A DNA stretch of 20,000 nucleotides, from the sequence record DRR378314_409. One strand, given 5' to 3'. Below the pieces are notes generated by a model, which made no database searches, was not told the origin of the DNA, and was given only the letters and a program-made list of their open reading frames with translations. Position numbers and translations under genes: made by a program. Positions 1 to 14,410 of this stretch are shown here, piece after piece. Every line of letters starts with the position of its first letter. Positions within the stretch are counted from its first letter, which is position 1.

Positions 1-1481
1 ATCTTGTCGAACTCCACGCCAAACGTATCGGATAGAATTTGCCGGAAAGCAGTTTCTCGGCCGTGTCCCTGACTGCTGCCACCCGTCGCGGCAGATACCG
101 TTCCATCTGGATTTAAAGTGACCGTTGCGCTTTCCCATCCCTGACCGCAAGGTTCGATGTAAAAAGAAAGGCCTAGTCCCTTCAGAATATCCTGATCTGC
201 TGTGTCCTCGATTTTTTTCTTTTTAGAAAAATAGTCTGTGCTGTTAATGAGATCATTGAATAGATTTGCATAATGGCCGGAATCCAGATGGGCTCCGGTG
301 ATGGTTTTCTGGTCCAGATCTTCTGATTTTCGAAAATTTTGAAGCCGTAACGCCACCGGATCCAAGCCGGTTTTCCGGGCAGCCTCATCTACCAGTCTTT
401 CGATCAACGTGACAGCTTCAGGTCTGCCCGCGCCCCTGTAAATTCCCACAGGTGCTGTATGAAGCTTAATTCCGTTCGTCGTGAGATCCAGCGCGTCAAT
501 TTTATAGGGGCCGGGTAGCATGCGCATCGCATTCCATGCAGGAATGGCCGCACTATTTGGTAACCAGTGACCGACAGGCGCAAAAGCTTCTGCTTTCAGG
601 GCTAAAAACTGACCGTCTTTATTGAGCGCAAGTGATCCTTTGGTTTTCAGGCCCCGGCCATGTGTTGCAGAGAGTAGGTCCTCGTTGCGGGTAGAAATCC
701 ATTTGACTGAGCGTTTGAGTTCAAAGGCAGCCCATACCGTAAAAACTTCTTCTGGGTAGAGAGAGGCTTTCATGCCAAAAGCCCCGCCGACATCTGGTGC
801 GATTACATTGATTTTCTCTGCCGGAATGTTGAGAATACGGGCGAGTTCGCTTTTTGCCCGGTGGGGCGTTTGGGTCGAAAGGTAAACCAGAACACTTTTA
901 TCTGTTGCGCAATATTCGACTGCTATTGCCCGGTTTTCCATCGGTGAGGGCGCCAGTCTTGGATGCTGAATTTCAACTTCAACAACGTGATCAGCTTGTG
1001 AAAAATTATCATCGACATTGCCCGTCTGCCATGACTGCCCAAGTACGTTTGGTGTCCCATCATCAACAGAGCCTAGTGAAACCCGAACAGTGTCAGAGGG
1101 GTCTATGTCTGCGATGACCAACTCAGCAGCGTCCTGTCCGATTTGGGAAGTAGAGGCAGCGATCGCCGCGATCGGTTGTCCAACGGCCTCAACATGACCA
1201 TCAGCAAGGATCGGGTAATCAAGTTCTTCTACCTTTTCAAGGATGGGATTGACTTTTAACTTGCCTAAATGCCGAACATCTTTTCCTGAAAATACGCTAA
1301 TAACATTATCTAGATCCTTAGCCTCTTCCAGATCTAAAGAGGTAATTTTTCCGTTAGGTGTGTTGGCGCGAATAAACGTGATGTATAGTGGATCTTTCAA
1401 GGGGACATCATCCACATAACGGCCGGCCCCGGTGATGAGTTTCTCATCTTCAACCCTCAATACGGCATCGCCGATCCGCAC
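1..1481 (-). CDS. Xanthine dehydrogenase-family molybdopterin-binding large subunit (CoxL/CutL-like, form II-type loop); 3' end truncated by the window edge
   Basis: Manual minus-strand translation from GTG at 1481 (GTAGGGAAA upstream) gives MRIGDAVLRVEDEKLITGAGRYVDD...PMENRAIAV...STQTPH...APDVGGAFGMKASLYPEE...APVGIYRGAGRPEA...GWESATVTLNPDG...GGSSQGHGRETAFRQI. The start and the last segment at the window edge are in the same frame. These are hallmark Moco-binding motifs. The ORF track misses it because no stop codon lies in the window. Confidence 0.95.
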   Translation of the reverse strand, partial: MRIGDAVLRVEDEKLITGAGRYVDDVPLKDPLYITFIRANTPNGKITSLDLEEAKDLDNVISVFSGKDVRHLGKLKVNPILEKVEELDYPILADGHVEAVGQPIAAIAASTSQIGQDAAELVIADIDPSDTVRVSLGSVDDGTPNVLGQSWQTGNVDDNFSQADHVVEVEIQHPRLAPSPMENRAIAVEYCATDKSVLVYLSTQTPHRAKSELARILNIPAEKINVIAPDVGGAFGMKASLYPEEVFTVWAAFELKRSVKWISTRNEDLLSATHGRGLKTKGSLALNKDGQFLALKAEAFAPVGHWLPNSAAIPAWNAMRMLPGPYKIDALDLTTNGIKLHTAPVGIYRGAGRPEAVTLIERLVDEAARKTGLDPVALRLQNFRKSEDLDQKTITGAHLDSGHYANLFNDLINSTDYFSKKKKIEDTADQDILKGLGLSFYIEPCGQGWESATVTLNPDGTVSAATGGSSQGHGRETAFRQILSDTFGVEFDK

Positions 1482-1681
1482 TTTCCCTACACTTGCAGGT
1501 TTCTGCCTTACCAATGGCGTAGAGCGATCTTTTTTTTGAAACCATTTGAAAAACTTCAATAAATTTCTCCGTCCGGCGCGGCTGATGTCTTTTAAAGACC
1601 CCGTTTGCAAGCAGGGGTGTTGATTGATTGCGCTTTAACTTGTCCAATATTGGCTATAATTCCAAATCATAATAATTTATC

Positions 1682-1706
1682 TTGGTATCAGAATTATGGA
1701 TAACAA
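1682..1706. promoter_or_regulatory. Putative LysR recognition box (T-N11-A dyad) in the divergent Mo-hydroxylase/nadX intergenic region
   Basis: TTGGTATC-AGAATTATG-GATAACAA is an imperfect palindrome with a TAT-N11-ATA core. It closely matches the box at 3539-3563. A second TAT-N11-ATA lies at about 1655-1671. Confidence 0.6.
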
Positions 1707-1771
1707 CCTGCCTTCGATATTGGTTAGCTTATGAGTAGATGTTGACCCGAGAGAGAAAAGAGAATGCAAAA

Positions 1772-2566
1772 ATGAAGCTAGCAATAATTGGGTATGGTGC
1801 CATTGCCAGCTACGCTGCAACCAAACTACGTGAAATTAATGATGTTGATTTGGCTTATGTGATTTGCCGTCAGGGGCGCGAAGCAAATGCCGTGCAAGCA
1901 ATCGGCGGTGCCGTGCAACCCATTATCAATGCGCAGCAGATAGCTGATGAAGTCGATCTGGTTTTGGAGTGTGGTGGGCATGAAGCTTTTAAGGCGCACG
2001 CACCGATCATTTTGGAACAGGGCTGCGATCTGGTTTCCGTATCCTCAGGTGTGATGTCGGACGGTGAGTTGGCTGATAGGCTGTGGCAAATCTGTGAGCA
2101 CTCCGGAGCTCGGCTGGAATTTACGACCGGCGCAGTTGGGGCCATGGATGCGTTGAACGCTGCGCGCATCGGCGGCCTGGAGGAAGTTCTTTATATTGGG
2201 CGAAAACGACCCTTGGGCTGGAAAGGGTCCAGAGCAGACACTATTCTCAATCTGGAGAGTGTACAAGAACCGACGCTACATTTTAAAGGTTCCGCCAGAG
2301 AGGCTGCAAAGCTTTATCCAAAGAACGCGAATGTTGCTGCAACCATCGGTATGAGCGGCATTGGTATGGAGAAGACGTTTGTCGAATTGTATGCAGATCC
2401 AACAATCGACAAGAATATTCATGAGCTGCAGGTGAAAGGCGCTTTCGGATCTTTTACCTTTCGAGTGGAAGGAGCCTCGCTTCCCGATAACCCAAAATCA
2501 TCGGCTTTGACGGCTATGAGTGTCGTCTCTTCGGTTCAAAAGCGCGTTTCCAGGATTTCAACTTAA
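1772..2566 (+). CDS. nadX: L-aspartate dehydrogenase (NadX family)
   Basis: N-terminal Rossmann motif MKLAIIGYGAIA and family motifs VECGGH, GAVGAMDAL, GSAREAAKLYPKNANVAAT, NIHEL (conserved His) and NPKSSALTA. ATG 1772 is preferred over 1739 because it begins directly at the Rossmann strand. Confidence 0.9.
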   Translation: MKLAIIGYGAIASYAATKLREINDVDLAYVICRQGREANAVQAIGGAVQPIINAQQIADEVDLVLECGGHEAFKAHAPIILEQGCDLVSVSSGVMSDGELADRLWQICEHSGARLEFTTGAVGAMDALNAARIGGLEEVLYIGRKRPLGWKGSRADTILNLESVQEPTLHFKGSAREAAKLYPKNANVAATIGMSGIGMEKTFVELYADPTIDKNIHELQVKGAFGSFTFRVEGASLPDNPKSSALTAMSVVSSVQKRVSRIST

Positions 2567-3534
2567 TGGCCGTTGGCTTCTGAGATCTTGGCGGCGGTTA
2601 ATTTGAGTTCCTGCAAGAAAACCTCAGCGGCTGGTGAGAGCCCGCCATCCCGGCGATAGGAAACACCAACAGCACTTAAAGACTGTTGAATGGGGCTTTT
2701 AATTTCTACCAAAGTGCCACTTCGAAGTTCATCCTCGATAACATGGTGGGGCATCATACAGAGCATATCACTCAACCGAATGAGTTCCCGGTTGGTCAGA
2801 AATGAAACTGACTCCACAGCGTTTTCCGGTGGCGTATAGCCATTATCCAAAAACTCTTTTTCAAGTTGACGGCGAAGCGTTGTGTCGTTGGGCGGGAGGA
2901 TCCATCCGAATAGTTTTAAGTCATCAAAGCTTGCCTGCCCCTTGTGGTTGGCAAGTGGATGGCCGGGCCGGGCAACGACGCAGAAATCTTCCTTTAACAG
3001 CCGTTCTTGAGAAATATGTTTACGATGTCGATATTCGGTGAGGCGTCCAAGAACGAGATCTACATCTCCGGTCTGCAGGGCAGGCATCAGAATATCGTTT
3101 GTGCCTTCACGAATAACAATACTGACATTTGGTCTGGCTTCATGCACTCGGGCGATTGTTTCTGGAAGTAACTTGGCAGAAGCCGCTAACAGGGTTCCAA
3201 TAACAACTCGTCCTCCCAACCCCTCATTTAGGTTGTCCAGCTCCTGCGCTGCGTTAGAAATTTGCGTCAGGATCAATTTACCATGTCGAACAAGCGCTTC
3301 CCCATAAGAGGTGGGAAGGGCACCACGGTTTGTTCTGTCAAACAACGTAACTCCAAAATCCGCCTCCAGATCTTTGATAAGCTTGGTTGCTGCGGGTTGG
3401 GAAATGTTGAGTTCCTTGGCTGCATGCAGGATGCTGGAATGTTCCGCGACAGAGACAAGTAATCGTAACTGCTTGAGTTTCAGACGTGTAGAAACACGCT
3501 CGGCAATTTTAATATGTCTGTTCCGGTCGATCAT
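2563..3534 (-). CDS. LysR-family transcriptional regulator (resembles the GbpR/GalR/PcaQ group)
   Basis: N-terminal HTH RLKLKQLRLL...SILHAAKELNISQPAATKLIKDLEADFGVTLFDRTNRG, followed by a LysR substrate-binding domain (GDVDLVLGRL, WILPPNDTTLR). Confidence 0.95.
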   Translation of the reverse strand: MIDRNRHIKIAERVSTRLKLKQLRLLVSVAEHSSILHAAKELNISQPAATKLIKDLEADFGVTLFDRTNRGALPTSYGEALVRHGKLILTQISNAAQELDNLNEGLGGRVVIGTLLAASAKLLPETIARVHEARPNVSIVIREGTNDILMPALQTGDVDLVLGRLTEYRHRKHISQERLLKEDFCVVARPGHPLANHKGQASFDDLKLFGWILPPNDTTLRRQLEKEFLDNGYTPPENAVESVSFLTNRELIRLSDMLCMMPHHVIEDELRSGTLVEIKSPIQQSLSAVGVSYRRDGGLSPAAEVFLQELKLTAAKISEANGH

Positions 3535-3538
3535 GAGT

Positions 3539-3563
3539 TTGTTATTGCATTTTGGAATACCTA
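3539..3563. promoter_or_regulatory. Putative LysR recognition box immediately upstream of the lysR start codon, divergent to the dioxygenase gene
   Basis: TTGTTATT-GCATTTTGG-AATACCTA has a TAT-N11-ATA core and lies 4 bp from the lysR ATG, the classic autorepression/divergent activation layout. Confidence 0.65.
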
Positions 3564-3642
3564 ATTCTAGTTAATTCAGTTGAACCACTATCTGGATCAG
3601 ATTAGCCTCTATGGGATAATAGACAAGATTGCAGGGATACTG

Positions 3643-4206
3643 ATGCCATTACATCCAAGATTTGCTCCATTTAATTTCGCGAAATGGGTGGAAGATAATC
3701 AGGAGAAATTGAAGCCACCTGTGGGAAATCAGCTGCTTCATCATGACAGCGGCATGATTGTCATGGTGGTTGGCGGGCCAAACACACGGGTAGATTTTCA
3801 TGATGATCCGGTAGAAGAGTGGTTCTACCAGATCAAGGGCGACATGATGCTGAAAATCTATGAGGATGGGGAGATTTATGATGTTCCTATTTTGGAAGGT
3901 GAAGTCTTTATGATGCCCGCCCATACAATTCATGCGCCTCAACGCCCGCAGGAAGGTTCCGTTGGGATTGTGGTTGAAGCTCCGCGCATGACCCACATGA
4001 AAGAAGGGTTTGAGTGGTTCTGCTTCGGATGTAATCGAAGATTACACAGAGCCGAAGTATCCCTAATGGATTCAAGTGCGATTGTGACCGAACTTCCAAA
4101 GGTTTATGAAGCGTTCCATGCGGATATGAACGCGAGAACCTGTCCAGATTGTGGGGAAGTTCATCCGGGCAAGGGGAAGCCACCAGAAGGTTGGGTTGTT
4201 CTATAA
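3643..4206 (+). CDS. nbaC: 3-hydroxyanthranilate 3,4-dioxygenase (HAO/NbaC family cupin)
   Basis: LKPPVGN, VGGPNTRVDFHDDPVEEWFYQIKGDM (His and Glu Fe ligands), HAPQRP (His and Arg), VVE, and the rubredoxin-like CFGC...CPDC site. ATG 3643 has GCAGGGA upstream. Confidence 0.92.
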   Translation: MPLHPRFAPFNFAKWVEDNQEKLKPPVGNQLLHHDSGMIVMVVGGPNTRVDFHDDPVEEWFYQIKGDMMLKIYEDGEIYDVPILEGEVFMMPAHTIHAPQRPQEGSVGIVVEAPRMTHMKEGFEWFCFGCNRRLHRAEVSLMDSSAIVTELPKVYEAFHADMNARTCPDCGEVHPGKGKPPEGWVVL

Positions 4207-4215
4207 TAGAGCTGA

Positions 4216-5226
<1,011 letters not shown>

Positions 5227-5249
5227 TCATCTCCCGAGGGAGTATGCCG

Positions 5250-5291
5250 AATTAAGCCGCCGAAAATCTGGGTATTTGAGGCGGCTTGATT
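5250..5291 (+). other. Intergenic stem-loop between dctP and dctQ (mRNA stabiliser or partial terminator)
   Basis: AATTAAGCCGCC...GGCGGCTTGATT forms a 12-bp stem with one G-U pair, followed by a short T run. Confidence 0.6.
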
Positions 5292-5322
5292 TTGTCTGTG
5301 AAGGCGGGTTTAGTAGTATCTT

Positions 5323-5880
5323 ATGTTAAGTCTCTTGCAAAAATTGTCCGGCCATATTTTGAGCGTTGAGAAAATTGTCATGATTTTCCTCGCAGCTTTG
5401 GTGACGGGCCTCATTCTTTTGAATGTTGTGACAAGGTCTATGGACTACGCGCTCTACTGGGTCGATGAACTGGCGATCTACTCCATGATCTGGATGGTTA
5501 TGATCGGGGCCTCTATGATTGTGAGGCTTCGTAAGGGGATTTCGGTGACCATTGTAGAGGAGTTTCTCTCCCTCAATCAACAAAGTGCACTTTCGCTTAT
5601 CGTCGATTTGGGCATTCTGCTTTTTGCTGCATTTTTGATCTGGTTGAACTTTCTCTGGTACGATCCGATCACTTTGATTTCTGTTGGGTTTGACCTTCAG
5701 GCCTTTTCCGAAGATAGCTTTAATTTTATTTATGAAGAACCGACCAATACCTTGGGTATTCCTAAATTCTGGATCTGGCTCATTATGCCTATTATCGCTG
5801 TGACGATGACCTTGCATGCGCTGGTTAATTTTCTGGAACGCCTGTTGGGTAGGCCTTCAGCTGCACCGGAGTTGATCTGA
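5323..5880 (+). CDS. dctQ: TRAP transporter small permease (DctQ)
   Basis: About four hydrophobic helices and the motif NVVTR...WVDELAIYSMIWMVMIGAS. Lies between dctP and dctM. Confidence 0.9.
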   Translation: MLSLLQKLSGHILSVEKIVMIFLAALVTGLILLNVVTRSMDYALYWVDELAIYSMIWMVMIGASMIVRLRKGISVTIVEEFLSLNQQSALSLIVDLGILLFAAFLIWLNFLWYDPITLISVGFDLQAFSEDSFNFIYEEPTNTLGIPKFWIWLIMPIIAVTMTLHALVNFLERLLGRPSAAPELI

Positions 5881-5882
5881 CC

Positions 5883-7145
5883 ATGGTAGCTGTCGTTTTT
5901 TTCGTTATCTTAATGATGGGATTTCCCATCGCATTGGTCCTGGCTGTCTCAGCTCTGTTTTATATCTTCTACTCAGATCAGGCAGTCCTGCTGCAGTCTT
6001 ATGTGCAGCAGTTGTTTTCAGGTGTACAGAGTTATGGGCTGCTTGCTGTTCCGCTTTTCATGCTGGCGGGGGAGTTGATGAACGAAGGCGGTTTAACCCG
6101 GCGCCTCATTGATTTTGCCAGTGTGTTTATCGGTCGTGTCCGGGGTGGCCTGGCTTATATCAATTTAATCGTCAACATGATGATGGCGTCTATTATCGGT
6201 TCGGCGGCCGCACAGATTGCGATCATGTCCCGGGCCATGGTGCCGGAGATGGAGAGCAAGGGGTATGATCGGTCCTTTGCAGCGGCAACCACCGCTGCGG
6301 GTGGTTTGTTATCTCCGATTATTCCGCCCTCAATGTTATTTGTAATTTATGGGGTGCTCGCCCAGATTGCCATCGGTGATATGTTTATCGCGGGTATTTT
6401 CCCGGGGCTATTAATGTCATTTGGATTTTTCGTCGCGATCGCTTTTTTGGGACGGAAATATGAATATCCCGTGGGTGAGAAGAAGACGAGAAAAGAGATC
6501 AAGACATCTCTTGTGATGGGGCTGCCAACCTTGTTAATCCCGGTAGTGATCGTCGGGGGTATTTTGGCAGGTTTTACCACCCCAACTGAATCTGCTGCTG
6601 TGGCCTCTGTCGTCGCATTTATACTTGGGAAGTTCTTCTATAAAGAACTAAAGAAAGAACAGATCCCGGGTGTTCTGTTAAGGACGGCGCTGAATACCTC
6701 CATTGTTGTGTTCATTGTGGCAACCGCCAACCTGTTTGGCTGGATCATCATATATGAACAGGTTCCCCAGAACCTGGCAGCACAGCTGGTTGAGATTACG
6801 ACGAATCCTTTGGTATTCCTTCTTATTGTCAATCTGGCCTTGTTGTTTGTTGGCATGATCCTGGACGGGATTGCGGCGCTTATTTTGGTTGTTCCTATTC
6901 TGTTGCCAATTGCACAGGATAACTATGGGATTGATCCCTACCACTTTGGGGTCGTGGTCTGCCTAAATCTGGTCCTGGGACTTTTAACACCGCCTGTGGG
7001 GGCCGGACTTTTTGTGACAACTGCCATGACCGGCGTTAAGCCAGGCGCACTTTTCAAAGCCTTGGTTCCGTTTCTGGTGACAACGGTTCTCGTGCTTCTA
7101 CTGATCAGCTGGCAGCCGCAAATTGTGACTTTTCTGATCCAATAG
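5883..7145 (+). CDS. dctM: TRAP transporter large permease (DctM)
   Basis: LLAVPLFMLAGELMNEGGLTRRLI, GGLAYINL, GSAAA, SPIIPPS, TPTESAAV and GLLTPPVG motifs in a 420-aa hydrophobic protein. Confidence 0.95.
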   Translation: MVAVVFFVILMMGFPIALVLAVSALFYIFYSDQAVLLQSYVQQLFSGVQSYGLLAVPLFMLAGELMNEGGLTRRLIDFASVFIGRVRGGLAYINLIVNMMMASIIGSAAAQIAIMSRAMVPEMESKGYDRSFAAATTAAGGLLSPIIPPSMLFVIYGVLAQIAIGDMFIAGIFPGLLMSFGFFVAIAFLGRKYEYPVGEKKTRKEIKTSLVMGLPTLLIPVVIVGGILAGFTTPTESAAVASVVAFILGKFFYKELKKEQIPGVLLRTALNTSIVVFIVATANLFGWIIIYEQVPQNLAAQLVEITTNPLVFLLIVNLALLFVGMILDGIAALILVVPILLPIAQDNYGIDPYHFGVVVCLNLVLGLLTPPVGAGLFVTTAMTGVKPGALFKALVPFLVTTVLVLLLISWQPQIVTFLIQ

Positions 7146-7260
7146 GCGGGGTTTTTGATCGACCTATAAAGGCGAATTGCCTCTGTTCATTCTGCTTCCT
7201 TCTGACTAGGATACGGCCAATAGAAGATAAGGGTCTACCTATAAAATGATTGAGGGAATA

Positions 7261-8907
7261 ATGCAGAAAACGGGCGGTCAGTTAATTGTAGAATGTCTTG
7301 AGACGCAAGGTGTGGACCGGATTTTTTGTGTGCCGGGGGAAAGCTATCTTGCGGTTCTGGACGCCCTCCATGATAGCCCGATCGAGACGGTTCTCGCCCG
7401 CCAGGAAGGCGGAGCAGCGATGATGGCGGAAGCCGATGGCAAGCTGACGGGCCGCCCCGGCATTTGTATGGTAACGCGGGGACCAGGTGCGACCAACGCC
7501 TCTTCGGGTGTACATGTTGCAAAGCAGGATTCTACACCGATGATCCTGCTGGTTGGCCAAATTGGCCGCCGAATGAAAGGGCGGGAGGCTTTTCAGGAAG
7601 TTGACTATCGTCAGACATTTGGAGATTTGGCAAAATGGGTCACAGAAATTGACCATGCTGACCGAATTCCAGAGGTTTTAGCCCATGCATTCTACGTGGC
7701 AATGAGCGGACGTCCGGGTCCAGTTGTTATCGCACTGCCAGAAGATATGCTCTGTGACATCTGCGAAGTTGATGTTGGCCCTCGGGTAGAGGTGCCAGAG
7801 CCGGCCCCAACGGATGAAGCCATAGGTGCGTTCGGCCACATGTTATCATCTGCGAAGTCTCCTTTTCTGCTGTTGGGCGGAAGCCGCTGGACCGAAGCGG
7901 CCGTTAAAAATGTTCATAAATTTGCCGAAGCCTGGGGGCTGCCGGTAGGCTGTTCCTTCCGCCGTCAGCAGCTATTTGATCATCTTCATCCTAATTATGC
8001 AGGTGATGTCGGGCTTGGCATAAATCCGTCGTTGAAAGACCGGATCGCGGCGAGCGATTTGGTTATTCTGCTTGGTGCGCGTTTCAGTGAAAACCCAAGT
8101 CAGGGGTTTAGTCTGTTTGATATTCCAAAACCCAAACAGTCGATTGTGCAAATCCACCCTGGTGCTGAGGAAATTGGCCGTATTTATACGCCTGACCTTG
8201 CGATGAATGCGACCCCGGGCACGTTCTTAAATAAGGTTCTTCAGCTTGAGCCCGCGCCGTTCGAAGGATTGGCCGGAGCTGCCCATGAGGCCTATTGTGA
8301 GTGGACAGATAATCTTCCCGCCACGCCGGGTGACGCAGAAATGGGTCCCATCATGCAGCAGCTTCGGGAGCGGTTACCTGGTGCGGTCATTGCTAACGGG
8401 GCAGGTAATTACGCCATTTGGGTGCATCGGTTTTGGCGGTTTCGGCAATTCGGATCCCAGCTTGCTGCGACTTCCGGGTCAATGGGGTATGGCCTGCCTG
8501 CTGCAGTGGCCGGTGCTTTGCGCCAACCACAGAAACCATTGATCTGTTTCGCTGGTGATGGCTGTTTTCAAATGACCATGCAGGAGTTCGGAACGGCACT
8601 ACAGTCAGGTGCAAATTTTTTGACAATTCTGGTGGATAATGGGGCTTACGGGACCATCCGTATGCATCAGGAGCGGGATTATCCCGACCGGATCAGTGCG
8701 ACGGAGCTTCAAAATCCTGATTTTGCAGCTATAGCCAAGGCCTATGGCGCTCACGCTGAGACGGTTGCTAAAACTGAGGAATTTGCGGGCGCTCTTGATC
8801 GGGCACTGGCAAGTGGAAAAGCGGCCCTTATTCATATTAAGACGGATCCGGAAGCGATTACGCCGGCAATTACCCTGACTAACCTTCGAGGAAGTGGAAC
8901 GAAATAA
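7261..8907 (+). CDS. Thiamine diphosphate-dependent enzyme (acetolactate synthase large subunit-like fold; substrate unknown)
   Basis: TGGQLIVECL, FCVPGESYLAVLDAL, RQEGGAAMMAEA (catalytic Glu), TRGPGATN, SGSMGYGLPAA and the ThDP motif GDGCFQM...DNGAYG. ATG 7261 follows GAGGGA. Confidence 0.9.
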   Translation: MQKTGGQLIVECLETQGVDRIFCVPGESYLAVLDALHDSPIETVLARQEGGAAMMAEADGKLTGRPGICMVTRGPGATNASSGVHVAKQDSTPMILLVGQIGRRMKGREAFQEVDYRQTFGDLAKWVTEIDHADRIPEVLAHAFYVAMSGRPGPVVIALPEDMLCDICEVDVGPRVEVPEPAPTDEAIGAFGHMLSSAKSPFLLLGGSRWTEAAVKNVHKFAEAWGLPVGCSFRRQQLFDHLHPNYAGDVGLGINPSLKDRIAASDLVILLGARFSENPSQGFSLFDIPKPKQSIVQIHPGAEEIGRIYTPDLAMNATPGTFLNKVLQLEPAPFEGLAGAAHEAYCEWTDNLPATPGDAEMGPIMQQLRERLPGAVIANGAGNYAIWVHRFWRFRQFGSQLAATSGSMGYGLPAAVAGALRQPQKPLICFAGDGCFQMTMQEFGTALQSGANFLTILVDNGAYGTIRMHQERDYPDRISATELQNPDFAAIAKAYGAHAETVAKTEEFAGALDRALASGKAALIHIKTDPEAITPAITLTNLRGSGTK

Positions 8908-8937
8908 CCCTTTCAGACCTGTATGGTTTTCTGTGTT

Positions 8938-8969
8938 AAATGCCGGCTTCGTAAGTCGGCATTTTTTTT
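8938..8969 (+). terminator. Rho-independent terminator after the ThDP enzyme gene
   Basis: AAATGCCGGCTT-CGT-AAGTCGGCATTTTTTTT is a GC-rich stem with one G-U pair followed by 8 T. Confidence 0.85.
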
Positions 8970-8974
8970 GGGAA

Positions 8975-9013
8975 TTGACATGCGATAGAAATTGTCTAAC
9001 GTTAGTTAGAATT
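8975..9013 (+). promoter_or_regulatory. Sigma70-type promoter of the tetR-carboxylase operon overlapped by a palindromic putative TetR operator
   Basis: TTGACA (8975-8980), 16 bp spacer, TAACGT (8997-9002). The inverted repeat TCTAAC-GTTA-GTTAGA (8995-9010) covers the -10 element. Confidence 0.65.
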
Positions 9014-9031
9014 AGTGAGGTGTATGAGCCA

Positions 9032-9631
9032 ATGAGCGATAAGAAGTCGATTGCTGAAAAATCTCGATCCCGGATTCTAGACCAGGCCGCCCGACTGTTT
9101 CGCCAAAAGGGATATGCGGCAGTATCTTTGCGCGGTATTGCCGATGCGGCCGGCATGAAGGCAGGAAGCGTCTATTATCATTTCAACAGCAAGGATGACA
9201 TTGTCCTTGAAGTTCTGAACCTGGGGATCAGCAAAGTCCATCAGTCTGTTGAGGCGATATATGAGGATGGCAAGGATACAAATACTCCCGCTGAACTTAT
9301 CCAGAATAGTATTGCAGCACATTTGAAAGCGTTGCTGTCGCATTCAGATTATACCTCTGCCAACGTGCGAATTTACGGACAGGTGCCGGAAGCAATTCAA
9401 AAGCAAGCCTTGGAAGTGCGTAAAGGTTATGAGGGGCTATGGGACCAATTGCTGAATAAATTGGCCACTGAGAACGCGCTTCGTACCGATGTGGATCTGA
9501 AGTTTTTCCGGCTGGCTTTAATCGGCTCTCTGAATGCAACGCTGGAGTGGTTCGACCCTGAAAAAGGGGATGTGGATGATTTGGCTGACGTCTATGGCCG
9601 AATTTTACTGAACGGAATAATGAGAGACTAA
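9032..9631 (+). CDS. TetR/AcrR-family transcriptional regulator
   Basis: HTH ILDQAARLFRQKGYAAVSLRGIADAAGMKAGSVYYHFNSKDDI and C-terminal GSLNATLEWF. ATG 9032 has GAGGTG upstream. The longer start at 8894 would span the terminator and promoter. Confidence 0.93.
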   Translation: MSDKKSIAEKSRSRILDQAARLFRQKGYAAVSLRGIADAAGMKAGSVYYHFNSKDDIVLEVLNLGISKVHQSVEAIYEDGKDTNTPAELIQNSIAAHLKALLSHSDYTSANVRIYGQVPEAIQKQALEVRKGYEGLWDQLLNKLATENALRTDVDLKFFRLALIGSLNATLEWFDPEKGDVDDLADVYGRILLNGIMRD

Positions 9632-9632
9632 A

Positions 9633-11234
9633 ATGGTTGTGATGCAAAGCGCGATTGATCCGGACTCAGATCAATTTAAGGAGAATCAGACCTATTTCGA
9701 CGGATTGCTCGATCTTTGGCGAGAGAGAATGCTGCAAGCAATGTCCAGTGGTCGTGAAAATTTGAAGGAGCGACATCGGGAGCGTGACAAGCTTATTGTA
9801 CGAGAAAGAATTGACCGACTTGTTGATCCGGGCACCGCTTTCCTGGAGCTTTCCCCGCTCGCCGCATGGGGGCAGTATGGGGGTGACCTAGCCGCTGCGG
9901 GAATAGTCACCGGAATTGGTTGGGTGTCAGGAACGCCATGTGTCCTGATTGCAAATGATGCGACTGTAAAAGGCGGCTCTTTCTTTGCAGAAACGGTCAA
10001 GAAACATATCCGAGCGCAGGAGATCGCAGAAAAACACCGTCTGCCATGCCTTTATTTGGTCGATTGCGGAGGTGCCTATCTGCCCGAACAGGATCGGGTT
10101 TTTCCGGATCGCGACCATTTTGGCAATACATTCTACCGACAATGCCAGTTATCGGCTCAAGGTATACCCCAGCTTTCAATTGTCTTTGGAGGATGTACGG
10201 CTGGTGGGGCTTACATTCCGGCTCTTTCAGATCAGGTGATCATGGTTGAAGGGAATGCCCGAATTCATCTGGGCGGGCCGTCTATTGTGAAGGTTGCCAT
10301 CAACGAAGATGTGGACGGAGAAACCCTTGGAGGCGCGCGGATGCACACGGAAGTCTCCGGAGTTAGTGACCATCTGGCTGCAACAGAAGAGGAAGGGCTC
10401 GCCAGACTTCGTGACATCGTTGCAAAGCTGAATATGGAACGGAAAAGTCGGCCTGCCAAAGCGGTTGTTCAGGATCCACATTATAGCGGCGAGGAACTCA
10501 CCGGAATTGTCAGTCATGATCGTAAGATCCCATATGATATTCGGGAGATTATGATCCGCCTTGTTGACGGAAGTGACATTCAGGAATTTAAGCCTGACTG
10601 GGGAAGCAGCCTTGTTTGTGGGTTTGCCGAAATTTACGGAATGCCGGTTGGAATTTTGGGAAACAATGGAGCCCTTTTTTCGGAAAGCTCTTTGAAAGGC
10701 GCTCAGTTTATCCAGCTTTGTGATCAGCGAAATATACCATTGCTTTTCCTGCACAATATCACTGGGTTCATGGTTGGTACGGAGGCTGAACGGGGGGGGA
10801 TTGCCAAAAACTCCGCGAAGATGGTTTATGCCATGTCGGTTGCCCGCGTTCCCAGAATCTCTCTAATCGTTGGGGGATCCTATGGCGCAGGTAACTATGG
10901 TATGTGTGGCCGCGGCTTTAGACCTGATTTTCTCTTTGCCTGGCCGACGGCTGAAGTGGCAACCATGTCTGCCGATATTGCCGCGAACGTGATGCTTGAG
11001 CTTAGGCGCGGAAAACATGGTAGTGCTGCAGCAACGCCTGAAGAGCTGGATAAGATCGAACAGACAGTCCGCCAGCAATATGAGGAACAAAGCGATCCTT
11101 ATTATGCCACCTCACGCCTTTGGGATGATGGGATCATAGCACCGGCGCAAACACGGACGGTTCTTGCTCTTTGTTTGGACCTTATCAGGAGCACGCCGAC
11201 AGTTGATCAGTTTTCACCAGTTTATAGGATGTAG
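9633..11234 (+). CDS. Biotin-dependent acyl-CoA carboxylase carboxyltransferase (beta) subunit, methylcrotonyl-CoA carboxylase (LiuB/MccB)-like
   Basis: RERIDRLVDPGTAFLELS, ANDATVKGG, KKHIRAQEIA, VFPDRDHFG, CTAGGAY, GAQFIQLCDQRNIPLLFLHNITGFMVG, GGSYGAGNYGMCGR, YYATSRLWDDGII and C-terminal VYRM. Confidence 0.92.
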   Translation: MVVMQSAIDPDSDQFKENQTYFDGLLDLWRERMLQAMSSGRENLKERHRERDKLIVRERIDRLVDPGTAFLELSPLAAWGQYGGDLAAAGIVTGIGWVSGTPCVLIANDATVKGGSFFAETVKKHIRAQEIAEKHRLPCLYLVDCGGAYLPEQDRVFPDRDHFGNTFYRQCQLSAQGIPQLSIVFGGCTAGGAYIPALSDQVIMVEGNARIHLGGPSIVKVAINEDVDGETLGGARMHTEVSGVSDHLAATEEEGLARLRDIVAKLNMERKSRPAKAVVQDPHYSGEELTGIVSHDRKIPYDIREIMIRLVDGSDIQEFKPDWGSSLVCGFAEIYGMPVGILGNNGALFSESSLKGAQFIQLCDQRNIPLLFLHNITGFMVGTEAERGGIAKNSAKMVYAMSVARVPRISLIVGGSYGAGNYGMCGRGFRPDFLFAWPTAEVATMSADIAANVMLELRRGKHGSAAATPEELDKIEQTVRQQYEEQSDPYYATSRLWDDGIIAPAQTRTVLALCLDLIRSTPTVDQFSPVYRM

Positions 11235-11245
11235 GAGTGACACAT

Positions 11246-13249
11246 ATGTTTTCACGTGTACTTATCGCCAATCGCGGTGAGATCGCCTGCCGGATCATGC
11301 AGGCTTGCCGTAAACTGGATATCGAAACAGTTGCCATTTATTCGGATGCCGATCGATCCGCTCTTTTTGTAGAGGACGCTGATATTACTGTTCCTTTGGG
11401 GGGCGGTGATGCTTCTTCTACTTACCTGAATGTTGATAAAATCATTGCGGCAGCAAAAAAATGTAAGGTAGACGCCATTCACCCCGGATATGGGTTTCTG
11501 TCTGAAAATGCTTCATTTGCAGAAGCTGTTGAAGATGCGGGATTGGTATTTATCGGTCCCAAATCTCAAGTTATTCAATTGATGGGATCAAAAATCGCTG
11601 CCAAAACCAAAGCCGCTCAAGTCGGCGTTCCCATTGTTCCAGGATATCAATCAGATGATCAATCGGACAAGAGCTTACACGACGCGGCTAAAGGCATCGG
11701 TTTTCCGATCCTGATTAAAGCCAGTGCAGGCGGCGGTGGTCGGGGGATGCGTCTGGTTCAAAAGATTGAAGATTTTGCAGGCGAGCTCAGTCTGGCTCGG
11801 CAGGAAGCAGAAGTCTCATTCGGAGATCCTGCAATTTTGCTGGAGCGCTATGTGGAGGCTGCCCGCCATATTGAGGTTCAAATATTGGGCGATCAGCATG
11901 GAAACATCCTGCATCTCTTTGAGCGGGACTGTTCTTTGCAGCGGAATAATCAGAAAGTCGTTGAGGAAGCGCCAGCACCAAATTTACCTATGGCTATAAG
12001 AACTGAAATGCTCTCTGCTGCAGTACAGTTAGCTGAGGCGGTTCAATATCAAAATGCCGGAACAGTTGAGTTTATTTACGATCCAAACCGGCAGGAATTT
12101 TATTTTCTGGAAATGAATACCCGCCTTCAGGTCGAGCATCCGGTCACAGAGTTGGTAACGGGTATCGACATTGTTGAATGGCAAATTCGCATCGCTGCAG
12201 GGCAAGAAATTTCATTTCAGCAAACAGATGTTTCACTGAACGGATGGGCAATCGAGGCACGATTGGCTGCGGAAAACCCAGCGGAAGATTATATGCCACA
12301 AACCGGCCTGATCAAGCGATATCGGGCGCCGGCAGGGCAGGGTATCCGGATCGATACTGGCATTCAGGAAGGCAGCGAAGTCACCCACCATTATGACAGC
12401 ATGCTGGCGAAATTGATTGTTCATGCAGAAACCAGAGAGACTGCTATTCGCAAGTTGGATAAAGCGCTCCATAAATTTGAGATCGAAGGATTTGAAAGCA
12501 ACTTAAAATTCCTCTCCGATTTGATCCAGTTGCCAGCATTTAGCAACGGTACGCATACCACCCATCAGATTGAAACCGAGTATCCAGAGGGCTGGATAGT
12601 CAAAGAATTGGATCCCTCAATTCTGGGATTAGCAGTGTTGTGTTTTCATCAGCATAGATTGCAGTCCGCCCCTATCTGTCCATGGACAGATTTGGGAAGT
12701 TGGCGACTAACCGATGAAATAGGGGCCGGGGGTATATCTTTCTATTATTTGATGGGGCAAGACGGCGTTGCATCCGGCTTTCAGATTGAAAACCTGAAGG
12801 CCCAGTATTCGGTGCGGCAAGGGGCTGATGAAATAGTCGCGGGCAAGATTTTGAAGGCTGGCCCTGGTACTCTCACTCTGGAGATGAGAGATCACCGCCA
12901 CACCCTCACATACGAAGTTGTGGGCGAAACCGTCCATCTACAGTTCCAAGACCGAAGCTATGGATTTCAGTTTTGTTCTATGGAGACGCATTTGCTGGCC
13001 GGAACCAAGAACGCGGCCAAAGATAGCAATCAAATTATGGCCCCTATGCCAGGCTTAATTGTGGAGGTTCTGGTGCAGTCTGGTGACTTAGTTCAAGCAG
13101 GGCAGACTGTTATCGTTTTGGAAGCTATGAAATTGATGCAAAAGCTGACAGCGCCGATAAGTGGGGTGGTGGACACAATACCAATCCAACCGGGAGATAC
13201 GCCACAAAAAGGGAAACTGTTGCTTTCTATTGAACCGGTTGATGGCTGA
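11246..13249 (+). CDS. Biotin-dependent acyl-CoA carboxylase alpha subunit (biotin carboxylase plus biotinyl domain), LiuD/AtuF-like
   Basis: VLIANRGEIA, HPGYGFLSEN, KASAGGGGRGMR, RHIEVQI, ERDCSLQR, FLEMNTRLQVEHPVTE and the C-terminal APMPG...EAMKL biotinylation site. ATG 11246 lies 8 nt after AGGAG. Confidence 0.93.
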   Translation: MFSRVLIANRGEIACRIMQACRKLDIETVAIYSDADRSALFVEDADITVPLGGGDASSTYLNVDKIIAAAKKCKVDAIHPGYGFLSENASFAEAVEDAGLVFIGPKSQVIQLMGSKIAAKTKAAQVGVPIVPGYQSDDQSDKSLHDAAKGIGFPILIKASAGGGGRGMRLVQKIEDFAGELSLARQEAEVSFGDPAILLERYVEAARHIEVQILGDQHGNILHLFERDCSLQRNNQKVVEEAPAPNLPMAIRTEMLSAAVQLAEAVQYQNAGTVEFIYDPNRQEFYFLEMNTRLQVEHPVTELVTGIDIVEWQIRIAAGQEISFQQTDVSLNGWAIEARLAAENPAEDYMPQTGLIKRYRAPAGQGIRIDTGIQEGSEVTHHYDSMLAKLIVHAETRETAIRKLDKALHKFEIEGFESNLKFLSDLIQLPAFSNGTHTTHQIETEYPEGWIVKELDPSILGLAVLCFHQHRLQSAPICPWTDLGSWRLTDEIGAGGISFYYLMGQDGVASGFQIENLKAQYSVRQGADEIVAGKILKAGPGTLTLEMRDHRHTLTYEVVGETVHLQFQDRSYGFQFCSMETHLLAGTKNAAKDSNQIMAPMPGLIVEVLVQSGDLVQAGQTVIVLEAMKLMQKLTAPISGVVDTIPIQPGDTPQKGKLLLSIEPVDG

Positions 13250-13264
13250 TAAGGGAAATGAAGA

Positions 13265-14410
13265 ATGAAAAATAACGTGTATTTTAGTGAGGAGCATATG
13301 ATGCTCCGCGATCAGGTGAAGAGATTTATTGCCGAAGAAGTTTTGCCATATGGGGATCAATGGGAGACGGCAGGCATGACCCCTCGGTCCGTGATCAAGA
13401 AGATGGGAGAGCTTGGGTTTCTAGGTATTCAATATGATCCCAAATATGGCGGCGCAGGTCTGGATGTGCTGGCAAGCGCCGTCTATGCGGAGGAGCTTGG
13501 TAAATCTTCTTTCGGCGGCTTTGCGATTACAGCGCTTGTTCACACGGATATGGCCTCCCCGCATCTTGCCAATGCAGGAAACGAGGCACAAAAAGCTAAA
13601 TATATGAGCGATATTATCGCTGGAAATATTGTGACCGCAGTAGCCGTCACTGAACCGGATGCAGGTTCAGATGTGGCGGGGATCAAAACCCGCGCTGTTG
13701 AGGATGGCGATTATTGGGTGCTGAACGGAACCAAAATGTTCATCACAAACGGAGTCCATGCAGATCTATATTTTGTGGCGGCCAAGACGGATATGACTGC
13801 AAAGGGTTCACGCGGCATCACCATTTTTATTGTTGAAAAAGGAGCGGATGGATTTTCCGTCGGACGCTCCCTCGACAAGATGGGATGGAAATCCTCCGAT
13901 ACAGCCGAGTTGGTTTTTGAGGACGTTCGGATCCATAAAGATAACGTGTTGGGGGAGGTTAATCGTGGATTTTATGCAATTATGCAAAATTTCCAAAACG
14001 AGCGAACGGTCCTCGGCGCTCAAGCGCTTGGTGAATGCCAAAAGGCGTTGGAGCTAACCTTGGAATATGTGAAAGGGCGTAAGGCGTTTGCCAAAACGCT
14101 ATGGGATAAGGATGTTATCCGGCAGAGATTGGCGATGCGCCAAGCGGAGGTCGCGGCAGGTCAACAGCTCTTGTATCACGCGGCGTGGATGGACGCGAAC
14201 GACATGGAGTGCGTCAAGGAAGTGTCTATGGTGAAAGCTTATTGCGGTGAGCTTGTGAACCGGGTGATGTATGACTGTCAGCAGTTTCATGGTGGTTTTG
14301 GATATATGCGTGAAGCTCCAATTGAGCGGATGGCCAGAGATGCACGGGTGCATTCCATTGGCGGCGGAGCGACCGAAGTCATGCTGGAGGAAATTGCTAA
14401 ACGCTCCTGA
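13265..14410 (+). CDS. Acyl-CoA dehydrogenase (LCAD/AtuD-type)
   Basis: AVTEPDAGSDVAGIKTRA, LNGTKMFITNG, KMGWKSSDTAELVFEDV, FQNER (LCAD/IVD-position Glu), QFHGGFGYM and RDARVHSIGGGATEVM. Confidence 0.93.
   Translation: MKNNVYFSEEHMMLRDQVKRFIAEEVLPYGDQWETAGMTPRSVIKKMGELGFLGIQYDPKYGGAGLDVLASAVYAEELGKSSFGGFAITALVHTDMASPHLANAGNEAQKAKYMSDIIAGNIVTAVAVTEPDAGSDVAGIKTRAVEDGDYWVLNGTKMFITNGVHADLYFVAAKTDMTAKGSRGITIFIVEKGADGFSVGRSLDKMGWKSSDTAELVFEDVRIHKDNVLGEVNRGFYAIMQNFQNERTVLGAQALGECQKALELTLEYVKGRKAFAKTLWDKDVIRQRLAMRQAEVAAGQQLLYHAAWMDANDMECVKEVSMVKAYCGELVNRVMYDCQQFHGGFGYMREAPIERMARDARVHSIGGGATEVMLEEIAKRS

Follow-up and report, generated by a model that had tools for sequence, protein, structure and literature searches.

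A conserved bacterial gene cluster predicted to take up and degrade 3-hydroxyanthranilate independently of ACMS decarboxylase

Gene content of the locus

3-Hydroxyanthranilate (3-HAA) is a central catabolite of tryptophan, and its ring-opened product, 2-amino-3-carboxymuconate semialdehyde (ACMS), is assumed to have one of two fates: quinolinate or decarboxylation by ACMS decarboxylase (ACMSD). The stretch of DNA analyzed here—20,000 nucleotides of the sequence record DRR378314_409, hereafter the window—carries a gene for 3-hydroxyanthranilate 3,4-dioxygenase (HAO) together with genes for a tripartite ATP-independent periplasmic (TRAP) transporter, a LysR-family regulator, a NadX-type L-aspartate dehydrogenase homolog, and the large subunit of a molybdopterin (Mo) enzyme (Table 1). 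As judged by comparison with related loci, this cluster is quite likely a system for the uptake and catabolism of 3-HAA that operates independently of ACMSD.

The open reading frames (ORFs) of the window were scanned with Pfam and NCBIfam models. The scans recover all genes named in the initial annotation of this DNA at their places; three ORFs have no NCBIfam match. Further details of that annotation hold as well: HAO and dctP are separated by a gap of 36 nt (4207–4242); DctP carries the motifs KIRI and DAIDMD, embedded in KKIRITP and QVDAIDMD, respectively; and kynA, kynB, kynU, nadA, and nadC are not found among the window ORFs scanned.

Table 1. Genes and intergenic features of the HAO cluster in the window and of the DNA directly downstream
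Feature	Position	Strand	Support or remark
XDH (xanthine dehydrogenase)/CoxL-family molybdopterin large subunit, N-terminal 536 aa; open at the left window edge	3..1610	-	Ald_Xan_dh_C, MoCoBD_1, MoCoBD_2
Degenerate dyad GGTAT-N10-GATAAC in the divergent Mo-subunit/nadX intergenic region; candidate LysR site	1684..1704	.	Conserved in relatives
NadX-type L-aspartate dehydrogenase homolog	1739..2566	+	NF009828, 311.8 bits (cut-off 177)
LysR-family regulator; convergent with nadX, divergent from HAO	2563..3534	-	Best model PcaQ, 223.5 bits, under the cut-off of 303.8
Dyad GTTATTGCATTTTGGAATAC in the lysR/HAO intergenic region; candidate LysR site	3541..3560	.	Sole match to the dyad pattern in the window
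HAO/NbaC, 3-hydroxyanthranilate 3,4-dioxygenase	ORF 3580..4206; likely gene 3644..4206	+	Two NCBIfam equivalogs passed
DctP, TRAP solute-binding protein; proposed ligand 3-HAA	4243..5226	+	PF03480
DctQ, TRAP small membrane subunit	5323..5880	+	PF04290
DctM, TRAP large membrane subunit	5883..7145	+	PF06808
Thiamine diphosphate (ThDP) enzyme, acetolactate synthase superfamily, PRK08199 type	7246..8907	+	NF006052, 825 bits (cut-off 539)
Terminator-like hairpin, strong	8938-8964		First in intergenic DNA downstream of HAO

Occurrence of the cluster in related genomes

The first relatives, found by a scan with NadX, are L001 and L002, two contigs of Sneathiella sp. metagenome-assembled genomes, and their gene order is identical to that of the window. 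Identity to the window amounts to 85–91% for HAO, 81–89% for DctP, and 78–84% for LysR, and to 54–64% for NadX and 56–58% for the Mo subunit. For L002 the values are 58% for the Mo subunit and 64% for NadX, next to 91% for HAO, 89% for DctP, 90% for DctM, and 84% for LysR; the Mo subunit and NadX have either evolved faster or been exchanged. A NadX search of 39 genomes of the Sneathiella order gives matches in 17, the flanks of which were mapped by tblastn. A dihydrodipicolinate synthase (DHDPS)-like gene, the Mo large subunit, NadX, LysR, HAO, and the TRAP genes occur together in 11 of the 39 genomes, and the cluster is present in eight further genomes from an even sample of 401 Pseudomonadota genomes. 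Marker proteins were mapped on 20-kb flanks, with flanks limited to about 10 kb and some contigs being short, and all genome counts are raw and ignore relatedness. Including the window, 20 cluster-type loci are available; the gene-neighborhood check suggested in the initial annotation thus finds the gene set to be syntenic in many genomes.

HAO is present in 22 of the 401 Pseudomonadota genomes and an ortholog of the DHDPS-like gene in nine; these orthologs all match at E ≤ 1e-146, and there are no matches between 1e-40 and that value. All nine DHDPS-like-positive genomes are also HAO-positive, with both genes on the same contig and within 12 kb of each other (hypergeometric p = 7e-13). Among the cluster-type loci, the DHDPS-like gene is seen in 18 of the 18 that reach far enough.

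HAO occurs in two contexts. The classical loci (L073, L078–L088) combine it with ACMSD, a RidA-like deaminase, a TIGR03216-type semialdehyde dehydrogenase, and/or kynureninase, whereas ACMSD, the RidA-like deaminase, and the TIGR03216-type dehydrogenase are found in none of the 20 window-type loci. In the HAO tree, a single branch can separate the cluster-type sequences (19 rows) from all others, with a support of 77/63 and in 72% of bootstrap trees; it arises from within the classical HAOs. Of the 20 cluster-type loci, 18 carry NadX, two of these copies being distant ones that end an ABC operon. No further recurrent gene is found in the 13 loci with clustered ORFs.

The cluster-type family is common among marine bacteria of the Roseobacter group, in Sneathiella, and in rhizobia, and plasmids frequently carry it: 47 plasmid records have the DHDPS-like gene, from Phaeobacter, Ensifer, Tritonibacter, Ruegeria, Rhizobium, Chelatococcus, and others. 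The annotated cluster on plasmid pGal_C110 of Phaeobacter gallaeciensis features, in addition, a kynureninase and a TctCBA transporter, and a kynureninase is also carried by the cluster of L069. Two loci have a glutamine synthetase-like gene directly beside HAO (L075, 8117–9538, a locus without NadX; L076, 10266–11624). Its product stays under the cut-offs for GlnA, type III glutamine synthetase, and gamma-glutamylputrescine synthetase and may handle ammonia or gamma-glutamylate an amine.

Enzymes of the cluster

HAO passes two equivalog models (NF009763, 243.7 bits with a cut-off of 220; TIGR03037, 224.2 bits with a cut-off of 145.95) and matches PF06052 with 156 bits. Its true start is probably the ATG at 3644 and not the opening of the ORF at 3580: this ATG is preceded by AGGGA, and the HAOs of relatives have a length of 187–193 aa. 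Aligned with 1yfu, the Cupriavidus enzyme, it is identical at the His/Glu/His iron ligands, the Arg/Arg/Glu substrate contacts, and the four Cys residues of the Cys4 rubredoxin-like site. Since all contacts to 3-HAA are kept, the substrate is most likely 3-HAA itself. The assignment as a genuine 3-HAA dioxygenase is thus strongly supported by model scores and alignment, and the ring-opened product would accordingly be ACMS.

The DHDPS-like gene lies to the left of the Mo subunit in the relatives, beyond the window edge. In L001 and L002, it encodes a protein of 317 aa and directly follows the Mo gene, in the place where Fe-S and FAD subunits could have been expected. The initial annotation had looked to this flank for Fe-S/FAD subunits, an ACMSD, and an aldehyde dehydrogenase; the 12 related Mo-type loci extending far enough present a different picture, with the DHDPS-family gene next to the Mo subunit in all 12, CoxG/S/M in two, and ACMSD in none. 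The protein is strongly conserved: 15 sequences agree at 135 of 317 positions. It keeps the Schiff-base Lys (AIKYS) of enzymes of the DHDPS/N-acetylneuraminate lyase (NAL) superfamily. It scores far under every named family model (best 86 bits, cut-off 281), and its weak matches include the model of the 5-dehydro-4-deoxyglucarate dehydratase family. The family comprises 6132 sequence clusters at E ≤ 1e-30, the best 120 of which are at least 76% identical and bear generic names only. Co-occurrence and synteny strongly support an enzyme of the DHDPS/NAL superfamily, encoded just to the left in relatives, as the obligatory partner of the cluster HAO.

The Mo large subunit is present in 14 of the 20 loci, and the other six carry an aldehyde dehydrogenase (ALDH) resembling alpha-ketoglutaric semialdehyde dehydrogenase (KGSADH) and succinate semialdehyde dehydrogenase (SSADH); no locus has both and none has neither. 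Because the two never occur together, the most likely function of the Mo enzyme is that of an aldehyde oxidoreductase and not of a ring hydroxylase. We read this pattern as a non-orthologous displacement, in which both enzymes would oxidize the same aldehyde—probably a small, carboxylated one. That the Mo large subunit shares the job of the ALDH, aldehyde oxidation, is strongly supported by this distribution. The six cluster ALDHs are mutually 67–78% identical and have the KGSADH 5x5t (E 5e-145) and SSADH as closest relatives. On TIGR03216 (cut-off 693) they score 235–295 bits, compared with 765.8 bits for the dehydrogenase of the classical locus L073, where a RidA-like deaminase (PF01042) is found as well.

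The best NCBIfam model for the Mo subunit is glyceraldehyde dehydrogenase alpha, and its best solved relatives are 8uem, 1t3q, and 4zoh. The window fragment features the motifs QTPHR and IYRGAGRPEA; the C-terminal Glu motif GVGEAG falls past the window edge and is present in eight of eight aligned full-length relatives. The active site of the XDH/CoxL family features a Gln, the YRGAGR loop, and a Glu. Full-length relatives measure 707–789 aa (730–738 aa in L001 and L002), with the DHDPS-family gene directly next to them. The subunit resembles form II CoxL and quinoline 2-oxidoreductase-type Mo subunits in its domain set and in the motifs QTPHR, YRGAGR, and GVGEAG. Unlike these, it mostly has no Fe-S/FAD genes next to it, its gene is linked to that of a DHDPS-like protein, and an ALDH can take its place. 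Only in L035 (4333–9431) and L036 does the operon of the Mo subunit and the DHDPS-like gene continue with CoxG, CoxS (2Fe-2S), and CoxM (FAD). Fer2_2 genes elsewhere in the genome number nine in G001 and seven in G002.

NadX was aligned to the archaeal and Thermotoga enzymes 2dc1 and 1j5p, and its catalytic His is located at the position of prokaryotic aspartate dehydrogenase (ASPDH) within NIHE. The window protein reads D-K-N-I-H-E, with Asn at −2 relative to this His, and N-x-H is invariant in 10 aligned cluster copies. In a June 2026 preprint (10.64898/2026.06.05.730449), human ASPDH is described as a 2-aminomuconate reductase downstream of HAAO, the His of the metazoan reductase is displaced two residues upstream of the ASPDH His, and prokaryotic ASPDH is treated as an enzyme of NAD synthesis. 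The metazoan-type shift of the His is not seen in the alignment of the window NadX. A different NadX context is found at five loci, L042–L046 (G003, G013, G015, G038, and G009): a distant NadX (36–45% identity) lies within approximately 5 kb of a distant ThDP enzyme (25–28% identity), and HAO is missing.

NadA (PF02445) and NadC (PF01729) are each found in none of seven cluster genomes, four of which have contigs of 3.7–4.4 Mb; identical searches match 12 of 14 control genomes. Since both are absent from all seven carriers, the cluster should not serve NAD synthesis. Kynureninase is not found in G002, one of the two closest genomes. These results sustain the proposal of the initial annotation that an exogenous amino-hydroxy-aromatic acid is taken up and degraded and that tryptophan is not converted to NAD here. 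In the 401-genome sample, NadC is missing from eight of nine cluster genomes and from 31 of 392 others (Fisher p = 3e-8), a tally that takes in the NadC-positive G422, a genome marked as unpublished on which no conclusion rests. NadC is, in addition, missing from 34 of the 39 Sneathiella-order genomes, with or without the cluster; the link between the cluster and NadC is therefore at least partly phylogenetic, and it was set aside as functional evidence. NadC-less lineages appear to depend on NAD salvage.

Transport and regulation

The import of an aromatic carboxylate by the TRAP system is strongly supported by the sequence of its solute-binding protein. The carboxylate-binding Arg of DctP (R172) is invariant in 11 orthologs, and the closest solved structure—4paf/4pai/4pbh (E 7e-135; 68% identity by Foldseek)—is, by its entry title, SPO1773 of Ruegeria pomeroyi. 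The three entries are reportedly complexes with 3,4-dihydroxybenzoate, 3-hydroxybenzoate, and benzoate. The AlphaFold model of DctP has a pLDDT of 62.7, and no structural conclusion was drawn from it. The Ruegeria pomeroyi DSS-3 protein resembles the window system in its surroundings as well: its locus-tag neighbor SPO1774 is listed as HAO in a published table (PMC3390766). As ligand of DctP, 3-HAA is proposed.

The transporter varies between loci: 15 have the window-type TRAP system, two another TRAP system, and two a Liv-type ABC importer; in one locus the contig is too short. In the ABC variant (L071, 6358–11348; L072, 10437–15850), the importer stands instead of the TRAP system, the distant NadX is the last gene of its operon, and an alpha/beta hydrolase (BD-FAE/Abhydrolase_3) is present as well.

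An ortholog of the window LysR (48–85% identity) is found in 17 of the 19 other cluster loci; in L071 and L072, the only LysR is 28% identical to it. The pattern G[GT]TAT-N9-11-GA[AT]TA[AC] has one match in the window, the dyad GTTAT-N10-GAATAC upstream of HAO, compared with a mean of 0.18 in 200 plain shuffles. Both this dyad and its degenerate counterpart are conserved in the equivalent intergenic regions of five related loci (L001, L002, and L032–L034), and the block around the former is conserved in the same five. The dyads in the two divergent regions are candidate LysR sites. Of the LysR boxes that had been suggested to be shared by both promoter regions, the dyads stand, and the 8-mer ATTCCAAA is rejected as a specific operator word, having five window matches with 1.8 expected.

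Proposed pathway

The best explanation of the cluster, modestly favored when taken as a whole, is a LysR-controlled system for the uptake and catabolism of exogenous 3-HAA that would proceed without ACMSD and would not feed NAD synthesis. Since no further gene recurs in the 13 loci with clustered ORFs, the module should reach central metabolites alone. Its five functions—transporter, HAO, DHDPS-like enzyme, aldehyde-oxidizing enzyme, and aspartate dehydrogenase—would be self-sufficient in the following way. The imine tautomer of ACMS is formally a 3-substituted iminoaspartate, and the DHDPS-like enzyme would bind the 2-imino/2-oxo tautomer through its Schiff-base lysine. Hydratase-aldolases of the DHDPS/NAL superfamily perform hydration and retro-aldol chemistry; in their manner, the enzyme would hydrate its substrate and cut it between C3 and C4. 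The products would be a C4 unit, either iminoaspartate or oxaloacetate, and a C3 aldehyde, either malondialdehyde or malonate semialdehyde. Oxidation of the C3 aldehyde would fall to the Mo enzyme or the ALDH, and NadX, working reductively as a genuine aspartate dehydrogenase, would convert the C4 unit and nitrogen into L-aspartate. The cleavage into a C4 unit and a C3 aldehyde is put forward tentatively, its chances lying somewhat below even.

Several points weigh against this explanation. The C3–C4 cleavage rests on chemical reasoning, and if the lysine formed its Schiff base at C2, the amino group would be expelled, so that the re-amination of oxaloacetate by NadX looks wasteful. The Tyr/Thr/Tyr catalytic triad of DHDPS/NAL enzymes is lost in the DHDPS-like protein: GKQGE stands for GSTGE, WSHP for YxxP, and HF for YY, with K (GKQGE), W (WSHP), and H (LHF) at the three positions, all invariant in 15 orthologs. 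Because of this loss, aldolase chemistry is not assured. The presence of the DHDPS-like gene in the window organism is deduced from the relatives. Fe-S/FAD partner genes adjoin the Mo subunit in only two of 12 loci, and NadX is absent within 10 kb in two of 20 (L070 and L075), where a search for a gene replacing it gave nothing informative. An ACMSD query taken from the classical locus L073 finds no match in five carrier genomes, which speaks for a route without this enzyme, but the search had no positive control genome. A TIGR03216-type semialdehyde dehydrogenase is located elsewhere in the genome in two of five cluster genomes.

The cluster can be set beside three known systems. The classical lower pathway of 3-HAA and 2-nitrobenzoate consists of the dioxygenase NbaC, the ACMSD NbaD, the semialdehyde dehydrogenase NbaE, and the deaminase NbaF. 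The first enzyme is the same—the HAO passes the NbaC equivalog—and so is the purpose, the catabolism of 3-HAA; unlike this pathway, the cluster lacks ACMSD as well as a dehydrogenase of the TIGR03216 type and a RidA-like deaminase, in place of which it has NadX, a DHDPS-like enzyme, and either a probable Mo aldehyde oxidoreductase or a KGSADH-like ALDH. Pairs of a DHDPS-family enzyme and KGSADH occur in the catabolism of glucarate, pentoses, and hydroxyproline; the cluster likewise pairs a DHDPS/NAL Schiff-base enzyme with a KGSADH-like ALDH, but its substrate would be a ring-cleavage product and not a sugar acid or a pyrroline. The metazoan series of HAAO, ACMSD, ALDH8A1, and ASPDH acting as 2-aminomuconate reductase shares with the cluster an ASPDH-family enzyme genetically tied to HAO and to an aldehyde-oxidizing step; it differs from it in the position of the NadX His, which is prokaryotic in the cluster, in the presence of ACMSD, and in the subfamily of the ALDH. 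The literature searched in full text, with subscription journals and supplements lying outside it, yielded no publication that links HAO with a DHDPS-family enzyme, a bacterial aspartate dehydrogenase, or a TRAP transporter in one pathway; in agreement with the initial annotation, no published description of the combination was found.

Alternative explanations

The most serious alternative, which we nevertheless regard as unlikely, makes the cluster a bacterial counterpart of the metazoan route. The DHDPS-like enzyme would then decarboxylate ACMS through a Schiff base, without being a homolog of ACMSD, and might deaminate as well; the resulting (amino/hydroxy)muconate semialdehyde would be oxidized by the Mo enzyme or ALDH, and NadX would reduce 2-aminomuconate to a C6 amino-dicarboxylate. 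The four enzymes match the route one to one, and decarboxylating enzymes of the DHDPS family are known, such as 5-dehydro-4-deoxyglucarate dehydratase, the model of which is among the weak matches of the DHDPS-like protein. The preprint reports human ASPDH as a 2-aminomuconate reductase (10.64898/2026.06.05.730449), but the His that it ties to this reduction is the shifted one, and the His of NadX is at the ASPDH position. The cluster ALDH is also KGSADH/SSADH-like and not of the classical TIGR03216 muconate-semialdehyde type. A C6 product, moreover, would need several further enzymes: none is recurrent in the 13 clustered loci, and HOA aldolase (TIGR03217) is above the cut-off in none of five cluster genomes.

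Improbable, on our assessment, is a role of NadX and the DHDPS-like enzyme before ring cleavage, in which NadX would oxidatively deaminate (3-hydroxy)kynurenine and the DHDPS-like enzyme would split the resulting 2,4-dioxo acid into 3-HAA and pyruvate, so replacing kynureninase. By chemical analogy, kynurenine may be regarded as an aspartate whose beta-carboxylate has been exchanged for an aryl ketone, and the missing kynureninase of one of the two closest genomes would fit such a replacement. Three points tell against it: the Phaeobacter plasmid cluster and L069 already carry a kynureninase; only the aldehyde-oxidizing enzyme would be left to deal with ACMS, with quinolinate a dead end in the absence of NadC; and the solved homolog of DctP was reportedly crystallized with small benzoates.

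The initial annotation had instead cast the Mo enzyme as a hydroxylase of N-heteroaromatic acids—quinolinate, picolinate, or a quinoline carboxylate, imported or derived from ACMS—with the cluster serving to degrade this heterocycle, and this assignment is very hard to uphold. The subunit is related to the large subunits of quinoline 2-oxidoreductase (1t3q, E 3e-112) and 6-hydroxypseudooxynicotine dehydrogenase (7dqx, E 6e-99), and the spontaneous cyclization of ACMS to quinolinate is established knowledge. However, the NAD-dependent ALDH that replaces the subunit in six of the 20 loci, never beside it, cannot hydroxylate a pyridine ring; genes for hydroxypyridine ring cleavage or amidases are not recurrent in the 13 clustered loci; and HAO keeps all of its contacts to 3-HAA.

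The supply of an NAD precursor, with HAO and/or NadX making quinolinate or another pyridine for NAD synthesis or salvage, is the least credible alternative: both enzymes come from families known in de novo NAD synthesis and the Phaeobacter NadX carries the GO term 'NAD biosynthetic process' in RefSeq, but NadA and NadC are missing from every one of the seven cluster genomes searched and matched in 12 of 14 controls, and high-capacity transporters, LysR control, an aldehyde-oxidizing enzyme, and plasmid carriage fit catabolism.

Flanking genes

The gene of the ThDP enzyme starts 100 nt past dctM and is followed by the terminator-like hairpin. It is possibly co-transcribed with the cluster, its membership being uncertain. 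The protein is remote from acetolactate synthases (best PDB match at E 9e-68). Of the 19 other loci, only L001 and L002 have an ortholog (74–77% identity) behind the TRAP genes; with three of 20 loci having it in this position, the enzyme is rejected as a core member and may be a lineage-specific addition to the operon.

Downstream of the ThDP enzyme, the window carries genes for a TetR regulator, a liu-like acyl-CoA carboxylase set, BioY/ECF, speD/speE, and a serine ammonia-lyase. The GTG start listed for the TetR ORF (8894–9631) is located upstream of the hairpin, and TetR_N is matched from residue 61 onward; translation probably starts at a site further downstream. TetR and the liu-like set—carboxyltransferase, biotin carboxylase/biotin carboxyl carrier protein, and acyl-CoA dehydrogenase—separate the ThDP gene from BioY/ECF in the window (8894–14410), whereas in L002 (15483–17884) BioY is directly behind the ThDP gene, an insertion/deletion difference between close relatives.

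Significance

The proposed route would provide ACMS with a widespread third fate, in which an enzyme of the DHDPS superfamily splits ring-opened 3-HAA into an aspartate-family C4 unit and a C3 aldehyde—a possibility that we are inclined to doubt rather than to affirm. If true, this would be a new reaction for the DHDPS/NAL superfamily and would give a role to 'orphan' aspartate dehydrogenases in bacteria without NadA and NadC. It would also show which class of substrate is used by a stand-alone form-II-CoxL-like Mo enzyme, representing one group among many unassigned CoxL-like enzymes, and reveal a sink, in marine and rhizosphere bacteria, for aromatic amines derived from tryptophan. The conserved, ACMSD-free gene set points to new enzyme chemistry and not to NAD synthesis.

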